Positions 27,249 to 46,306 of a stretch of 64,000 nt of DNA are shown in pieces. Both the position numbers and the translations under genes were made by a program. The first letter of the stretch is position 1. Each line of letters opens with the position of its first letter. A model generated the notes under the pieces. That model saw only the letters and a list, made by a program, of their open reading frames with translations. It did not search any database and was not told the origin of the DNA. The stretch comes from an uncultured Planctomycetaceae bacterium (GTDB lineage Bacteria; Planctomycetota; Planctomycetia; Planctomycetales; Planctomycetaceae): positions 192,001 to 256,000 of the forward strand of contig CAWFGE010000018.1 in assembly GCA_963815195.1 (NCBI GenBank). Direction: 5' to 3'.

Positions 27249-27485
27249 CGGTTGTTCCTTTCCAACCCAAAGACGAATAACGCTTGATGATTGTTGATAT
27301 TCAAAGGACAAAGTGAAAGACAGATCCAAATAGTTTTGGGTTTTTGGGGAGCCGATGTCCGCGTCCCGATGTCCCCATCTTCCGTTTTGGGTTTCGAGAT
27401 TCGGATCGGGGTTTGTATCATCGGGGGAGTGACCGCATGGCTGGGACACGTTTCACTAAGATTTTGTCGATTCCGAGAAAACTGC

Positions 27486-37218: not shown

Positions 37219-40200
37219 ATGAATCTCATTCGATTTTCCATTCAGAACCCCGTGAAGGTGGCCGTCGCCGTCATCATGTCGGTGATGTTCGGTTTGATTG
37301 CGTATTTCGGGACGCCGGTGCAGCTCACCCCCGACGTGGAAGAACCGGAAATCACCGTCACCACCCGTTGGCCGGGCGCGAGTGCCCAGGAAATCGAACG
37401 CGAAATCATCGAGGAGCAGGAATCCCACTCAAAAGCGTGGAAGGACTCCGGGAGTTCAAAAGCGAAAGCTCCGACTCCACCGGGACGATCACCCTGGAGT
37501 TCGCCGTCGGGACCGACCTGGGGGAAGCGGCGGCCCGCGTGCGGGACAAGCTGAACCAGGTGCCCGCATATCCCGAGGACGCCGACGAACCGGTGATTAC
37601 CACCGTCAATCCGAACGCCAACGCGATCGCCTGGTTCATGCTCAAGCCGCTGACGCCGACGACAGAGGAACTGGAGGCGACGGTCCGGCAGTATCCGCAT
37701 CTCAAGCCGGTGCTCGCGGACATGATCTCGGGCAAAAAGACGATCACGATCTCGGGCATGGAACGGCTGGCCAGAAAGCATCCCGAGCTGCTTCCGCTGG
37801 CCCGCGGCAAGAACGCTCCCTCCAAGATGCGCAAGTTCGCCGAGGACAAGATCGAAGCCCGCTTCGAGCGCGTGAAGGGCATTGCGAACTCCAACGTGCT
37901 CGGCGGCCGGGAACTGGAATTCCGCATAGTCGTCAATCCTTCCAAGCTGGCCAGCTACAAAGTGACCATCGACGACTTGCATACCGCCCTTAGAAATCAA
38001 AACAAAAACACCTCCGGCGGCGACATTCGCGAAGGCAAAAACAAAAACGTCGTCCGCACCATCGGGCAATACGATTCCCCCCAAGAAGTGCTCGAGACCA
38101 TTATCGCCCAGAGGGACAATTCGCCTGTCCGTGTGGGGGACGTGGCGACCGTGGGCGTGGATTACAAAAAATCCGAAGGCATCGTTCGGCAGCAGGGCGT
38201 CAATTCGCTCGCAGTCAACTGCCAGCAAACCCCCGGCACGAATCTGGTCGAAGTCATGGGGCCGACGTACCAACAACTCGACATGGACGGCGACGGCGAG
38301 ATCACGCAACTCGAACTCACCCAGGCCGAGCGGCTGTGGGGCGATTCGCTTCGCATTGCCTGCGCGGAACTCAACGCGGGCATCCTCAAGCAAATGGGAC
38401 TCCAGCTCGAACAGGTTTACGATCAGACCGATTACCTCAACTCGGCGACGGCCCTGGTGGAGAACAACATTTTCGTCGGCGGGGCGCTGGCGATTTTTGT
38501 GCTGCTGTTGTTTCTCCGCAGCCCGCGGTCGGTCGTGATCGTCGGGCTGTCCATTCCGATCAGCGTGATTGCCACGTTCTTGTTCGTGAAGGCCTTCGGC
38601 CGCAGCATCAACGTGATCAGCCTCGCGGGGATGGCGTTCGCCGTGGGCATGGTCGTGGACAACGCCATCGTCGTTTTGGAAAACATCTTTCGGCATTATC
38701 AAATGGGCAAAGACCCGGACACCGCGGCGACCAAAGGCGCGACAGAGGTTTGGGGGGCGGTGTTGGCTTCGACTTTGACCACGCTCGCCGTGTTCGTGCC
38801 GGTGATTTTCGTCGAAGGCCAGGCCGGTCAGCTTTTCCGCGACATTGCGATCGCGATCAGCTGCGCGGTCGGGCTGTCCTTGATCGTATCGATCACCGTG
38901 ATCCCCACCGCCGCCCGCCGGATTCTCAAAGAGCACACGTCGGGCGATCCGATCCCCGACAACGCCCCAACCAACGGCCAAAACGGCCACCGCCTGGAAC
39001 CGACCTGGAAACGCCATTTGAAAACCGGCATCGGCGGCGCGGTGAGCTTCGGACAGAAGATCACGGACTTGTTCGCCGCTTCGATCTACCGCCTGCAGAC
39101 GATGCCGGGCAATTTTTTGATTCGGGTGGCGGTCGTGGTGGTGTTCGTGGTGGGGTCGATTCTGGGAGCGATCGCTTTGGCGCCGGCGACGGAATACCTG
39201 CCCGACGGGAACCGCAACCTGGTGATCGCCATCATGAAGCCGCCGCCAGGCTACAACGTGGAGCAAATGATCCGCCTGGGCGAATCCATCGAGCCGGACC
39301 TCGCCAAGTATTGGGAAGCCGAACCCGGTTCCCCGGAAGAAAAGGCCTTGGACGGGCCACGGATCGAGAACTTCTTCTTCGTGGCCCGGGGGACGCGGCT
39401 GTTCATGGGAGCCCGAGCGGCCGATCCGCTTCGGGCGGGCGAGTTGGTGCCGATCATCAATAACGCGGCCCGCAAGGTGCCCGGCGTGTTCGCGTTCGCG
39501 ACGCAGGCCAGCCTGTTTGAAAGCGCGATCTCCGGCGGCCGGTCCATCGACATTGAAATCACCGGCCCCGATTTGGAAACCTTGGTGAACGAAACCCAAT
39601 TCGCGATGGGCATGTTGATGAAGGAATTTCCCTTGGCCGATGGGAACCAGCTCCAGCCCACGCCGAACCCGTCGCTGTCCAGTCCCGAATTGCACGTGAC
39701 GCCTCTGCGGGAAAAAGCCGCCGAGCAAGGCGTCAGCGCCAGCGGTCTGGGCTATGCCGTGAACGCACTTGTGGATGGAGCCTACGCCGGCGACTACTGG
39801 CACGAAGGCGAAAAGATCGACCTGGTGATTTACGGGTCCGATGAATACTCCCGGCACACGCACGATGTCGCTTCTCTGCCGATCGCCACGCCGCAAGGCA
39901 ATGTCGTGCCGATCTCGGCGGTGGCGGATGTCGCCCTAACCCGCGGCCCGGAAGCGATCCATCACAGCGAACGCGTGCGGACGTATACATTGCAACTCAA
40001 ACCCAGCCCGGCGATTCCCCTGGAAACGGCCCTCCAAACCGTCAATGAAAAAATCCGCGGGCCAATGCTCGAGCGCCCCGCGTTTCGCAGCGGGATGTAC
40101 CACATCCGCCTTGCCGGGACCGCCGACAAACTCGAAGAAACCCGGCTGGCTTTGCAGTGGAACCTCGCCCTGGCCATGATCATCACGTACCTGTTGATGT

Positions 40201-40862
40201 CGGCCCTGTTCGAGTCGTTCTTCTATCCGCTGATCATTATGACGAGCGTGTGCCTCGCGATGGTGGGCGGCTTCGGAGGATTGGCCCTCTTGAACGCCTT
40301 CACCCCGCAGGCCCTGGACATGCTCACCATGCTGGGCTTCGTCATTCTGATCGGGACCGTGGTCAATAACGCGATTCTGATCGTGCACCAGGCGCTCAAC
40401 TATATGCGGGAAGAAGGCTGGGACGAAAAACGGGCGGTAACCGAAAGCGTCCGCACCCGCATCCGTCCGATCTTTATGACCACAATGACCACCGTGCTCG
40501 GCATGCTGCCCTTGGTCCTGCCCGTGCCCACTTGGGGGCCCGACGGATTGATGTGGGTCTCGGGGGCCGGCAGCGAACTTTATCGCGGCTTGGGCAGCGT
40601 GGTGTTGGGCGGCCTGATCGTCTCCACGATGTTCACGCTGATCTTGATCCCGGTCGGCTTCAGCCTGGCGATCGATCTCAAACGGTTCCTCTCCGGCATC
40701 ATCGGCCTGAAGCCCGCAGAACCCGCCCCGGCGATGGCCGCGGAATCCCCCGCCTACAGCAGCCGCGAAATCGCTGCCCCCCACGCAACCGCCGCCGGCT
40801 CTCACCGCGAACCCGAAGCCGAACCGGTGAGCGAGTTCACCCCCACAGACCACGTCCCGTGA
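37219..40862 (+). CDS. RND efflux permease (AcrB family), frameshift near 37428
   Basis: TRWPGASAQEIE, GMVVDNAIVVLENI, GTVVNNAIL, RIRPIFMTT. Confidence 0.93.
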
Positions 40863-40961: not shown

Positions 40962-42387
40962 TTACGCTTGCGGTTCGGTCATCTTGTACGGATCGAGCGC
41001 ATCGTTCAGCACATCTTCGGGAAGAATCTTCTGCTCCTGGCAAAGTTCACGGATGGTCTTGCCGGTCTTGAAGGCTTCTTTCGCGAGCGCTGCGGCTTTT
41101 TCGTAGCCAATGTGCGGATTCAAACTCGTCACCATCGACAGACTTTGCTCCACCGCGGCTTCGCAGGCTTCTTCGTTGGCCTCGATCGACTTGGCACAGA
41201 GATCGACGAAAGCATCGGTCGCTTTGGATAGCAGCATCACGCTTTCCAAGACCGTCTGAGCCATCATGGGCATCATGATGTTGAGCTGGAAATTCCCGCC
41301 CGCCGCCCCCGCGACGGCGATCGCCTGGTCGTTGCCCATCACGCGGGCGCAAACCTGCAGCATGCTTTCGCAAAGCACCGGGTTGACCTTGCCCGGCATG
41401 ATCGAGACTGCCGGGCTGCAGATCCGGAATCTTAATTTCATAAAACCCGCACCTGGGCCCCGAACCCAACCAGCGGATGTTGTTCGCCACGTTGAACAAG
41501 GTCGAAGCAATCGCCTTGAGATCGCCGTGACATTCCACGAGCCCATCGCGCTGGGCGTTGGCTTCGAAATGGTTCTTGGCTTCCACAAACCCGATGCCGG
41601 TTTCCTGGGCGAGCACCTTCGCGACCCGGCCGCCGAATTCGGGATGCGTGTTGATCCCCGACCCCACCGCGGTCCCGCCCACGGGCAGTTCCAAGACGGC
41701 ATCCCGCGCCCGCTCGGCCCGCTGGACCGAAAGCTCGATCTGCCGGGCAAACCCGCCGAACTCCTGGCCGAGCCTAAGCGGCGTGGCATCGGCGAGATGC
41801 GTGCGGCCGATCTTGATGATCTTATCCCAAGCCGTCGCCTTCTCGCGGAGCGTTTGCTCGAAGGACTTGAGAGCCGGGATGAGCTTCTTTGTAATCTCTT
41901 GGGCGACCGCGACGTGGATCGCGGTGGGAAAGGTGTCGTTCGTGCTTTGCCCCATGTTGACGTGGTCGTTGGGATGCACGGGCTTGGTCGCGGCGAAGCG
42001 GTCGCCTCCCAAAAGTTCGATCGCCCGGTTGGAAATGACTTCGTTCACGTTCATGTTGCTCGACGTGCCCGAGCCGGTCTGGAACACATCGATCGGAAAC
42101 TGATCGTCCCAGTCCCCCGCGGCCACCTCCCGGCAGGCTTTGAGCATGGCTTCGACCTGTCCGTCACTGAGCGGATTTTTCCCGCTGCCGGTGAGCTTGC
42201 CCAGATCGCGGTTCGCCGTCCCGCAGGCGAACTTGACGAGCCCCATCGCATGAATCAGCGCGGGCGGCAACGTCATCCCGGAGATGGGAAAATTCTCGAC
42301 GGCCCGCTGCGTCTGCGAAGCATAATACGCCTGAGCCGGCACCTGCACTTCACCCATCGAATCCCGTTCCGTGCGAAACTCACTCAT
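40962..42387 (-). CDS. fumC: Class II fumarate hydratase, frameshift near 41408
   Basis: RTERDSMG, QTGSGTSSNMN, HPNDHVN..QSTND, KIGRTHLADA, (GS)SIMPGKVNP. Confidence 0.95.
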
Positions 42388-42974: not shown

Positions 42975-43352
42975 TCAACGGACGATGCGTTCGGATTCGA
43001 CCTTTGGGTAATGGCCGAAATTGACGAGCAACCCTAGTCTGTATCCCGTGCTTTTCAAATAGTTGTGGACTTGAGCGCGGTGTTCTTCGGCAAGTTGTTT
43101 CAGTGCTTTGATTTCAAGAATGACCTTTTCGAAGCAGATAAAGTCGGGAACATATTTCTGCTCCAGTACTCGGCCTTTGTATTTGAGATCAAGAGGTTGC
43201 TGAGCTCGAATGGGGATTCCTCTGCTCGCGAATTCCATTTGCAGACACTCTTGATAAACGGCTTCCAGAAATCCGCAACCCATTTCCGTATACACCTCAA
43301 AACAAGCCCCCATAATCTGGTAGCTCTCATTTTTTAGTGCAACCTCCGCCAT
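42975..43352 (-). CDS. GxxExxY protein (PD-(D/E)XK nuclease superfamily)
   Basis: MGCGFLEAVYQECL, YVPDFIC..ILEIKA, QVHNYLK..GLLVNFG. Confidence 0.93.
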   Translation of the reverse strand: MAEVALKNESYQIMGACFEVYTEMGCGFLEAVYQECLQMEFASRGIPIRAQQPLDLKYKGRVLEQKYVPDFICFEKVILEIKALKQLAEEHRAQVHNYLKSTGYRLGLLVNFGHYPKVESERIVR

Positions 43353-43487
43353 TGATCTTCCCCCGACGAACAAGTAGGAACCCCCCCAATACCAGAAAGA
43401 TCAATATACGGTGAAACGTCCTGTTTTGAAGTGCGTTTTCTTATCCTTTTCGTGTATTTCGTGTGTTTCGTGGTCCCTTCCGTCGTC

Positions 43488-44351
43488 TCAATAAAGCGCC
43501 GTGGCCAGTTTGCGGCGGTAGGTGCTCACGATGGCGGAGCTTTGGCCGATGAGGTCGAAGATTTTCAGCATGGTCTCTTTCGCCTCCTGGCCGGCACCTT
43601 CGCGGTCGGCTTGGATGACTTCCAGGCACAGGTCCAAGGCTTCCTCGAACTTGCGGGACACCGCGAGCGCATCGGCGAGTTTGATTTTGAGCGCGAGGTC
43701 GCCGGGGTTCGCTTGAACGGCGGCCCGGGCTTCTTCGACGCCTCCGGTTTCCGCGGCGGCCGCGCGGAGATCGAGTTGGGACTTGAGCTGCTCGGCTTCA
43801 TCCTCCAGGTAGCCTCGGGTTTCCAGTTCGCTAATGATTTGCCGAGCTTCCTCATCCCGGCTTTGCGCGAGAAGCACCCGCGCGAGGCGAATGCGAATCG
43901 CATCGTTCGCGGGATCCGTCTGCGCGGCTTCGCGGTAACACTGCTCGGCGGACACGGGATCGCTGACTTCGAGTTCCTCGCCCCGGCGGAGGAGTTCCTC
44001 CTCGGCAGAAGGCATCAAGGCCTTCACCCATTCCCGAAGTTGCGGCTCCGGCAGCATGCCTTGAAACTGATCCACGGCCCGGCCTTCGTAAACCGCGAAC
44101 ACCGTCGGGATCGATTGCACCCCAAACGCGGCGGCGAGTTCCTGCTCCTCGTCGATGTTGACCTTCGCCAAAACAAGTTTTCCGCCGGCTTCGTTCACCA
44201 GCTTTTCCAGCACCGGACCCAACACCTGGCAGGGCTGGCACCAGGGGGCCCAGAAGTCGATCAGCACGGGGCATTTCATCGAGCGGTCCACGACCTCTTC
44301 TTGAAACGTGGCGGCCGTGGCGTTGATGATCCATGCAGAAGACTCGGGCAT
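43488..44351 (-). CDS. Thioredoxin-TPR chaperedoxin (YbbN/CnoX)
   Basis: PVLIDFWAPWCQPC, FGVQSIPTV, TPR region, YRRKLATALY. Confidence 0.9.
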   Translation of the reverse strand: MPESSAWIINATAATFQEEVVDRSMKCPVLIDFWAPWCQPCQVLGPVLEKLVNEAGGKLVLAKVNIDEEQELAAAFGVQSIPTVFAVYEGRAVDQFQGMLPEPQLREWVKALMPSAEEELLRRGEELEVSDPVSAEQCYREAAQTDPANDAIRIRLARVLLAQSRDEEARQIISELETRGYLEDEAEQLKSQLDLRAAAAETGGVEEARAAVQANPGDLALKIKLADALAVSRKFEEALDLCLEVIQADREGAGQEAKETMLKIFDLIGQSSAIVSTYRRKLATALY

Positions 44352-44451: not shown

Positions 44452-44547
44452 AAAAAAAGCGTCCCGAAACCGCACACGTTCCGAGACGCCTTTTTTAAGT
44501 TGAAAATGCTGACAAGTGCGGGCCAACTCCTGTCATCACTTTCCTCC
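44452..44547 (-). ncRNA. Putative sigma54-dependent small RNA, copy 1 (~96 nt)
   Basis: Stem-loop with loop GUUGGCCCGCA, then an intrinsic terminator and U7; paralog ~306 bp upstream. Confidence 0.7.
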
Positions 44548-44558
44548 AGCCATCAATT

Positions 44559-44725
44559 GCATGTTTCGTGCCAAACCAGAGGGTTAGTTGTTGTTTTGTT
44601 CGCAAGCCATTTTAGTATAACGACTTGAAGAATTATTTCATCCAAAAACCATTGGACTCTCGCTTTCCCAAGGGTGAAGCAAAACGCAACACTTGTGGCG
44701 AGATCGCCTCAAGCAAAATGCAACA
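44559..44725 (-). promoter_or_regulatory. sigma54 -24/-12 promoter plus paired activator boxes, copy 1
   Basis: TGGCACGAAACATGC at 44573-44559; GCAAAAYGCAACA boxes at 44679 and 44713. Confidence 0.7.
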
Positions 44726-44759
44726 CTCTTTGCCGATTCTCGAACAGGGAATCGGCAAC

Positions 44760-44853
44760 AAAAAAGCGTCCCGAAACCGCACACGTTTCGGAACGCCTTT
44801 GATGCAAGAATCGATGACAAGTGCGGGCCAACCCTTATCATCGCTTCTCACAG
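44760..44853 (-). ncRNA. Putative sigma54-dependent small RNA, copy 2 (~94 nt)
   Basis: 19-bp stem with the same loop, near-identical terminator and U6. Confidence 0.7.
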
Positions 44854-44864
44854 TAAAACGGTTT

Positions 44865-45028
44865 GCACATAGAATGCCAAAACGGGCTACAATTCCGGCA
44901 TTATCCGTAAGTCCCTTTACACGAATCTGTTGTGTCAGTTTTTGGATGACGAGCCAACCCAGCGGACTTCCCGAAAAGTGTAGCAACATCAAACAGTTGC
45001 GGTCGCAGCCCGAATGCAGAATGCAACA
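44865..45028 (-). promoter_or_regulatory. sigma54 -24/-12 promoter plus paired activator boxes, copy 2
   Basis: TGGCATTCTATGTGC at 44879-44865; boxes at 44983 (degenerate) and 45016 (GCAGAATGCAACA). Confidence 0.65.
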
Positions 45029-45043
45029 TTTTTTCGATGGGGC

Positions 45044-45997
45044 TTACTGGTCCCACAAGTTGCGCTGGGACGGATCGGCCGCTGGTTTTCGTTTTTGGTT
45101 TTGCGTTTGACGCTGGCGGTCTTCGAGTTTGATCCCGTCTTTGGTTTGGGGAGCACTGGCGAGCGGGTTCTCGGCCCCATCGAGCGGTTGGCCGGGGCGG
45201 ATTTCGCTCAATCGGCGGTTGGTTTGCTCGGCGTAGTCCGGCGAGAGTTCAAATCCCAAGAACCGGCGATTCAGTTTTTTGGCGACCGCCATTGTTGTGC
45301 CGCTGCCCGCGAAGGGATCGAGCACCAACTCGCCTTCGCGAGAGCAGGACCGCATGATTCGTCCCAGCACCTGTTCGGGCATTTGGCAGCCGTGCCAGCC
45401 TTTGCGTTCCTTGAAGGTCCCGTTGACCCGCGGGATGTACCAGGTGTCTTCGTGGGCTTGGAAACTCTCCGGGCAATCTTGGGGGCGGAGAATCCAGGTG
45501 TCGTCCGGCAATCGGCCATTGGGATTGGCCCGCTTGTCGCCGTAAACCAGTTGCCGGGCCGAGGGCACGCGGACCGCGGGGTCGTCGGCGTTGAAGGTGA
45601 AGGCTTTCGGATCTTTCACCATGTAAAACAGATGCACGTGGGACCGGCTGAATTTGTGTTTGCAATTCACCCCGAAGGTGTAGTACCAGACGACCCAACT
45701 CCGGCAGGAAAGCCCCAATTGCCGCTGCATGAGGACTTTCAGCTCGGCCGCAAACTCGTCGCCGATCGCCAGCCAGAACGTGCCGGCGGGTTTGAGCACC
45801 CGCTTGACCTCGGCCATCCAGTCGCAAGACCAGCGGAGATATTCCTCCGCCTCGCGCTGGTCGTCGTATTGGTCGTATTCGTAGCCGATGTTGAAAGGCG
45901 GATCGGCAAACGCCAAATCCACGCACTCCGCCGGCAGCGACCGCATCCCGGCGATGCAGTCCCCGTTGATAACTTGATCCACAGGCAATTCGGACAT
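45044..45997 (-). CDS. Orphan N4/N6 DNA methyltransferase (beta class)
   Basis: [10 protein letters not shown] precedes [11 protein letters not shown]; no restriction gene adjacent. Confidence 0.92.
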
Positions 45998-46306
45998 GGT
46001 GGTTTGGAGATTTTCGTTACGATAAGAAGAGGAATCGAAGCGACGGCAGGAGCATGTTAATGCAAATCGGTGTGCAACTGTAGGAATCGCTCGCCGGAAA
46101 TACACAGAATGCACTCGCCCCCACGCGGGCCGCGGTCGAGAGTCGGTTCTTCGGCAAGCCGCTCAAGAGCACGGGGCCTCTGCCGGTTACGTTGGTTTGA
46201 GAATGCTGTCGAAAGCTCATTTCTCGCACCAAAGGCGATTCGCATCCTTAAACGTCGATTGGGAGTAACCGGGGGGCTGACGCCCCGCGCTCGCCCTTTT
46301 GCACTT

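Follow-up and report, generated by a model that had tools for sequence, protein, structure and literature searches.

What occupies the gap, poor in open reading frames, between a DNA methyltransferase gene and a thioredoxin-TPR gene in the genome of an uncultured Planctomycetaceae bacterium? The initial annotation of this DNA took it to hold a tandem pair of sigma54-driven small-RNA (sRNA) genes. Within the window, by which we mean the whole 64,000-nucleotide stretch analysed, the gap contains two units on the minus strand. Each has a TGGCA-N7-TGC promoter preceded by boxes, then a hairpin whose loop reads GUUGGCCCGCA, and finally a U-tract terminator. A small-peptide gene was considered as an alternative occupant and rejected, the gap holding just scattered short ORFs. 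The features of the locus are listed below, with box scores from a PWM derived from 86 upstream regions.

45044..46114, minus strand: DNA methyltransferase N6/N4 gene, upstream neighbour, outside the system (Pfam PF01555, E 1.9e-50)
45012..45028, minus strand: unit A, distal predicted activator (bEBP) box (PWM 7.4 bits)
44979..44995, minus strand: unit A, proximal predicted activator box (PWM 13.5 bits)
44906..44913, minus strand: unit A, GRCTTRCG motif, weakly conserved (from sequence; core in 16/89 members)
44865..44879, minus strand: unit A, sigma54 -24/-12 promoter TGGCATTCTATGTGC (from sequence; fixed spacing across the family)
44760..44853, minus strand: predicted sRNA A, about 94 nt, hairpin 1 plus terminator (fold z -6.4; 71 bits with covariance model R2)
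44821..44832, minus strand: RNA A, invariant loop, GUUGGCCCGCA plus closing C (GTTGGCCCGCAC) (loop columns identical in 89-92 of 92 RNAs)
44760..44800, minus strand: RNA A, intrinsic terminator (inverted repeat I10; helix 95% paired family-wide)
44709..44725, minus strand: unit B, distal predicted activator box (PWM 15.9 bits)
44675..44691, minus strand: unit B, proximal predicted activator box (PWM 17.5 bits)
44601..44608, minus strand: unit B, GRCTTRCG motif (from sequence)
44559..44573, minus strand: unit B, sigma54 -24/-12 promoter TGGCACGAAACATGC (from sequence)
44452..44547, minus strand: predicted sRNA B, about 96 nt, hairpin 1 plus terminator (fold z -6.2; R2 69.7 bits)
44516..44527, minus strand: RNA B, invariant loop GTTGGCCCGCAC (from sequence; family loop columns)
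44452..44497, minus strand: RNA B, intrinsic terminator (inverted repeat I3)
43488..44351, minus strand: ybbN/cnoX-like thioredoxin-TPR gene, downstream neighbour, outside the system (Pfam Thioredoxin plus TPR_20)

Much of the layout proposed in the initial annotation survives closer inspection. The promoters at 44879-44865 and 44573-44559 lie 306 bp apart, in keeping with the approximately 306-bp unit that had been seen twice on the minus strand; predicted RNA starts at 44853 (A) and 44547 (B) fall 12 nt past the -12 C, and the GC terminators with U-tracts are borne out by inverted repeats and by U-tracts that end at 44760 (unit A) and 44452 (unit B). Both RNAs are predicted to fold stably (z = -6.4 for RNA A and -6.2 for RNA B), with 0 of 200 shuffles equally stable. 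Other parts of the description need amending. The paired boxes are present, 33 bp (A) and 34 bp (B) apart, but they are imperfect 17-bp palindromes rather than GCAAAAYGCAACA half-sites, and the consensus quoted for them is exact in unit B (44725-44709 and 44691-44675) but loose in unit A (45028-45012 and 44995-44979). The conserved motif noted upstream of the promoters (CGYAAGYC, listed above as GRCTTRCG) occurs in both units, but has its core at that position in just 16 of 89 family members; it is possibly part of a DNA-bending (IHF-like) site, with a role for IHF that we infer.

The methyltransferase gene also adjoins the pair in two genomes of the same genus (G001 and G002). On the other side, a small gene of the PD-(D/E)XK_3 family lies between fumC and ybbN (42975-43373), and fumC (40962-42387), an AcrB-like transporter gene (37219-40862), and pilT elsewhere in the assembly (contig C18, 44003-45137) are split by frameshifts, which are likely assembly indel errors.

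A family of predicted sRNA genes in the Planctomycetaceae

The copies are not limited to the pair, as had been supposed. The assembly (8.9 Mb) contains four complete units, two of them outside the window on the plus strand of contigs C7 (position 310375) and C10 (position 123707), and an earlier covariance model, R1, recovers exactly these four copies from this genome at 55-61 bits, the next match scoring 19 bits. G001 and G002 each have four matches to model R2, the tandem pair is present in G001-G003, and locus L122 has three tandem copies. The window pair is a genus-level expansion.

Model R2 was built from an alignment of 70 units and is the source of the family and phylum counts given here; four loci (L092, L094, L115, and L154) passed the terminator filter and were left out of the alignment on record title and excess length. 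Searching the Planctomycetota with a model built from the copies had been suggested at the outset, and it proved productive: at E<=1e-4, R2 has matches in 126 of 150 Planctomycetaceae genomes, spanning 67 of 74 genera, and with the cut-off tightened to E<=1e-6 the number is 125. An exact promoter-plus-loop pattern is found in 74/201 family genomes, with 0 for a reversed-pattern control. R2 overlooks divergent members, as illustrated by two genomes (G017 and G128) that have no R2 match and show the promoter and core loop by pattern. A family of ~90-base predicted sRNA genes spans most of the Planctomycetaceae genomes searched. The redundancy first proposed holds within this genus, with its four copies, but not generally, as 84 of the 126 R2-positive genomes have a single match; the other 42 have two to four, the weaker extras not all having been inspected.

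Beyond the family the picture changes sharply. In a sample of the phylum, R2 matches 9/9 family genomes and 2/141 other Planctomycetota, and those two matches (L183 and L186) were rejected as plain terminators without loop and promoter, so that, judged by their sequence, the 141 genomes hold no credible R2 match. A loose pattern gave no grounds for accepting presence outside the family either, its matches in other families of the class being about as frequent as those of the control, and viral contigs gave 0 matches. In a scan of named genomes, the structured matches among those listed belong to records titled Planctomycetaceae and to related Planctomycetota, including Planctopirus hydrillae (L140), and the other-phyla matches among those listed are mostly without stem and terminator.

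Stems that covary around a nearly invariant loop

The stems of the two window copies had been noted to differ and still pair, and this extends to the family as a whole. Across 92 distinct RNAs (mean length, 93 nt), 86% of cells are paired and 28 of 29 pairs have double changes, counts that relatedness inflates and that were made on an alignment not fitted to the structure in stem 1. The covariation score is 0.60, versus 0.26 for shuffled alignments and <=0.17 for slid registers; RNAalifold run on a plain MAFFT alignment shows double changes in 18/22 pairs, and G-U pairs are common in the stems.

The loop behaves quite differently, with a mean identity of 95% versus 48% for the stem-1 arms. Across many genera, eleven loop bases and the pair that closes the loop show almost no variation, and the loop columns are identical in 89-92 of the 92 RNAs, which upholds the earlier description of the loop as invariant, although there is some circularity in this conservation, since the loop itself served to find most members. 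Those that only the model detected retain the core GCCCGCAC and mostly the promoter, and change on the 5' side of the loop.

In the window copies, the terminator loops (44778-44784 and 44471-44477) have a sequence that complements the invariant loop in its 3' part, and every window-type copy seen in the genus keeps this terminator loop while the stems diverge. A kissing contact specific to the genus might account for this, or no more than a recent duplication. As a family feature, intramolecular pairing between the two loops was rejected, with a complementary 5-mer in 9/92 RNAs, 7 of which are window-type copies of the genus. The loop also resembles a stretch that we take to be part of 16S helix 28 in many bacteria; mimicry of 16S rRNA was rejected, as the 16S of this genome differs at two positions in that stretch.

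Promoter, upstream boxes, and candidate activators

A TGG-N9-TGC element lies 44-54 nt ahead of the CCCGCA core in 83/91 members, and 4 of the other 8 are near-consensus, a conservation that is partly built into the search. The homologs retain the -24/-12 element at fixed spacing in these 83 members, in agreement with the GG-N10-GC promoters of the initial annotation. Three loci (L175 and L178 of genus g65, and L222) have an intact loop and terminator without a recognisable -24/-12 element, and may now use another type of promoter.

Conservation extends to the upstream boxes, even though they are in neither the search pattern nor the covariance model. The palindrome TG-NN-GCA-W3-TGC-NN-CA scores >7 bits in 80/86 upstream regions versus 5/86 shuffled ones, using a matrix that started from an idealised palindrome and was trained on the same 86 regions, and box positions peak at ~115 and 135-150 bp ahead of the promoter. 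When the 57 intergenic sigma54-consensus sites of this genome are ranked by box score, the four sRNA promoters take the top four places (21.0, 19.6, 17.5, and 13.5; next, 8.2), with the qualification that the PWM included these four. This ranking suggests a dedicated activator, which appears, from the distribution of its predicted boxes, to have the sRNA genes as its main output in this genome.

The genome encodes RpoN and over a dozen activators. Eleven of these were scanned, and none reaches any NCBIfam cut-off, that for LuxO included; a few further, partly broken genes lay outside the scan. Two activators (contig C22, 352467, and contig C13, 918130) have orthologs in 4/4 genomes tested, based on 30 of 47 matches taken as loci, and others may share this property. 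The ortholog of the C22 activator is ~6.5 kb from the sRNA gene in genome G074 (L225/L221) and is not near it in three other genomes. At position 43810 of contig C18, ahead of the pilT gene of a type IV pilus/T2SS cluster, there is also a perfect box palindrome without a sigma54 consensus. A type IV pilus regulon was considered and dismissed, because a pilT upstream box exceeds 10 bits in just 2/30 orthologs.

Genomic context and signs of expression

Of 108 flanking proteins picked, 99 were scanned. The commonest site has panB upstream (18/50 loci, including the C7 copy of this genome), and because this site recurs, the C7 position beside panB is probably ancestral, as far as comparison of loci can tell. 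The 32 downstream genes identified with Pfam fall into 16 unrelated families, 25 on the same strand and 7 convergent. This variety of neighbours points to a free-standing predicted gene with its own promoter and intrinsic terminator, with some room for read-through.

Assembled RNA contigs are available for one homolog, L221. In run X1, one contig starts at position 1518, within the RNA and 16 nt from its predicted 5' end; it leaves the promoter region uncovered and extends into the downstream thioredoxin-reductase-like gene. Runs X2 and X3 have no contig over the L221 RNA, which proves nothing; the RNA runs, available as contigs only, have shares of 0.05-0.08. The X1 contig is a weak hint of expression, from one study and from contigs only, and fits a leaky terminator and DNA carry-over alike.

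RNA-binding proteins and possible targets

Hfq was found in 0/80 relatives and, with a protein query, in 0/3 same-genus genomes. The hfq gene of this assembly sits in the compositionally shifted end of contig C23 (~580000-677907; tetranucleotide distance, 1.8-2.1 versus a median of 0.87), which also carries hflX and rph, both of which have second copies elsewhere in the assembly. The foreign-looking end is probably contamination or a chimeric join, and dependence of the sRNAs on Hfq was rejected, as the genome's own hfq is in foreign-looking DNA and the gene is absent from the relatives searched. ProQ was not found in this genome. Nine CsrA-family genes over the cut-off and three RRM genes are present, and one CsrA-family gene (contig C12, 163590) has a sigma54 consensus promoter. 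The loop is without GGA, and 28 of 92 RNAs are without any GGA, which excludes canonical CsrA titration.

Searches for paired targets gave no convincing candidates. The neighbourhood of start codons shows no enrichment of the seed complement, a seed plus Shine-Dalgarno plus ATG pattern in 111 genomes, assessed by eye, did not pick out the same gene in different genera, an accessibility-corrected ranking of duplexes over rough gene calls had no convincing match, and the leaders of the activator, csrA, and RRM genes show no conserved site. These searches covered few arrangements and are no evidence against the existence of targets. A dnaX-like gene (contig C5, ~27368-27405) has two loop-complementary sites 27 nt apart within its coding sequence. 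Some copies of a REP-like hairpin repeat (contig C22 upstream of 218127, C18 at 95140, and C6 at 72281) contain a loop-complementary 9-mer, which is probably a coincidence.

Relationships to known sRNAs

The pair had been presented as a system not recognised from Planctomycetota. In Rfam 15, no family reaches threshold for the window pair or for six other loci. The search of the window gave a sub-threshold match to Pxr alone (RF01812; 26.6 bits, E 0.059, one copy; gathering score, 80 bits), aligning GUU..CCC.CAC in loop 1. The second window copy and the six other loci have no Pxr match, and the best score in five genomes is 19.3 bits. Locus L179 (2923-2967) has a near-threshold match to Rfam Acido-Lenti-1 (33.4 bits; threshold, 37), which has nothing to do with the sRNA.

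Three kinds of sRNA invite comparison. Qrr sRNAs need Hfq, CrcZ is sigma54- and activator-driven, and CrcZ/CsrB-type RNAs are long with many repeated motifs. The likeness to the titrating CrcZ/CsrB type lies in the sigma54-driven transcription of CrcZ and in the abundance of CsrA paralogs in this genome; the RNAs here differ in being ~93 nt long with one loop and no conserved GGA. With Vibrio Qrr1-4/5, driven by LuxO and sigma54, the family shares multiple dispersed copies and an activator output apparently dominated by sRNA genes, and the box core is identical to the LuxO sites of qrr genes as given in Table 1 of PMC10328515. In contrast, there is no Rfam Qrr match at E<=10 (window) or E<=1 (six other loci), no LuxO ortholog among the 11 activators scanned (best score, 372 bits versus a cut-off of 800), and no Hfq in the relatives (0/80).

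The likeness to Pxr of Myxococcus and Cystobacter, whose activator is PxrR/Nla19, extends further. According to the available text of PMC5684412 and PMC5568312, Pxr also has a sigma54 promoter and an NtrC-type activator (which here we infer), a host without hfq (PMC5684412), and, in Cystobacter, two-hairpin tandem paralogs with their own promoters (PMC5568312). In Pxr, function resides in the loop of the first hairpin, SL1, which the same portion of PMC5684412 reports to be essential, and the corresponding loop here is conserved in sequence. The systems differ in phylum, in loop sequence, and in hairpin number (two here, three in Pxr), and whereas pxr is directly downstream of pxrR/nla19, no activator is among the 99 flanking proteins scanned here. 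Pxr RNAs are processed to a short form and govern development. Pxr is further described, in the part of PMC5568312 consulted, as recent and confined to the Cystobacterineae. The best reading is that the family works like Pxr and Qrr and is homologous to neither.

The literature search returned no regulatory small RNA for Planctomycetota; subscription journals and supplementary motif lists might hold one. For this phylum, the accessible portion of PMC2864571 names just the Rhodopirellula-1 motif, and that of PMC12316311, on a planctomycete sigma54 regulon, uses neither the word sRNA nor non-coding. This is a real family of predicted sRNA genes, apparently undescribed in Rfam and in the literature covered.

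A model for the sRNA family and its rivals

On balance, we consider it probable that the units encode a conserved family of ~90-nt regulatory sRNAs, driven by an activator and sigma54, whose loop pairs with mRNAs in trans without Hfq. Its starting points are the observed elements, their conservation and spacing, the covariation of the stems, the independence from neighbouring genes, and the lack of Hfq in the relatives searched. A signal would switch on one NtrC-family activator, which would occupy the TG-NN-GCA-W3-TGC-NN-CA boxes that precede the promoter by ~115 and 135-150 bp; the AT-rich spacer DNA would bend, and sigma54 polymerase would make the RNA. Hairpin 1 would keep the 12-nt loop open, such that base pairing with G-rich sites, UGCGGGCC for example, could start from the core GCCCGCAC, and the paired targets would be repressed or destabilised. 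Extra copies may tune the dose.

Several target searches failed, and protein binding therefore remains a serious rival. A tentative alternative, which we rate as possible, is that the loop is a protein-recognition site, with the RNA titrating or activating an RNA-binding protein, for example one with an RRM or a diverged CsrA paralog. The near-invariance of eleven loop bases and the closing pair across many genera speaks for such a site, no conserved complementary target was found, and the genome has nine CsrA-family and three RRM genes with no Hfq in the relatives searched. However, an RNA with just one loop would be a poor sponge, the lack of GGA in the loop and in 28/92 whole RNAs excludes canonical CsrA titration, and in divergent genera the 5' part of the loop varies and the C-rich core does not, the pattern that a seed would show. 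That the element is instead a sigma54-driven 5' leader or attenuator governing read-through into the downstream gene is unlikely: 25/32 downstream genes are on the same strand, thioredoxin-system genes recur among them, and the X1 contig joins the element to a thioredoxin-reductase-like gene, but 7 of the 32 are convergent, the 32 fall into 16 unrelated families, tandem copies occur without an intervening gene (in the window, and three in L122), no alternative antiterminator is seen, and the sequence of the terminator stem is free to vary.

We regard descent from Pxr as very unlikely. Pxr is the best Rfam match, at 26.6 bits with loop 1 aligned, and Cystobacter has two-hairpin tandem Pxr paralogs (available text of PMC5568312), but the score is far under 80 bits, the second copy and six other loci are unmatched, five genomes score <=19.3 bits, no activator gene is among the flanking proteins scanned, and Pxr is itself recent and Cystobacterineae-limited in the same text. 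Least probable of all, to the point of being scarcely credible, is a DNA-level or non-functional repeat, either a duplicated terminator or a REP-like element; terminator-only sequences reach 39 bits with the model, but dozens of genera preserve promoter, boxes, loop, and terminator as a set with fixed spacing even as the spacers diverge, G-U pairs are tolerated, and there are 1-4 copies per genome.

Returning to trans-acting sRNAs that pair with mRNAs, a more ambitious extension is speculative and rather doubtful at present: that this is a core Planctomycetaceae switch, in which a dedicated two-component activator has this sRNA family as its main output, a plan convergent with LuxO-Qrr down to the operator, operating without Hfq or ProQ (alone or via an RRM or CsrA-paralog chaperone). 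Such a switch might gate a lifestyle decision, for example the transition to budding or from swarmer to attached cells, much as development in myxobacteria is gated by Pxr.

Significance

Few sRNAs, to our knowledge, reach the breadth of most genomes in a whole bacterial family. With a defined promoter, operator, and 12-nt functional element, the system is directly testable, and the family occurs in a cultured genus (L140, Planctopirus hydrillae), which we take to include the genetic model of the group. It would be a third independent case of the sigma54-activator-to-sRNA design, and would offer a way into post-transcriptional control in Planctomycetota, a phylum whose life cycle is unusual, and in a family in which no Hfq was found in the genomes searched.
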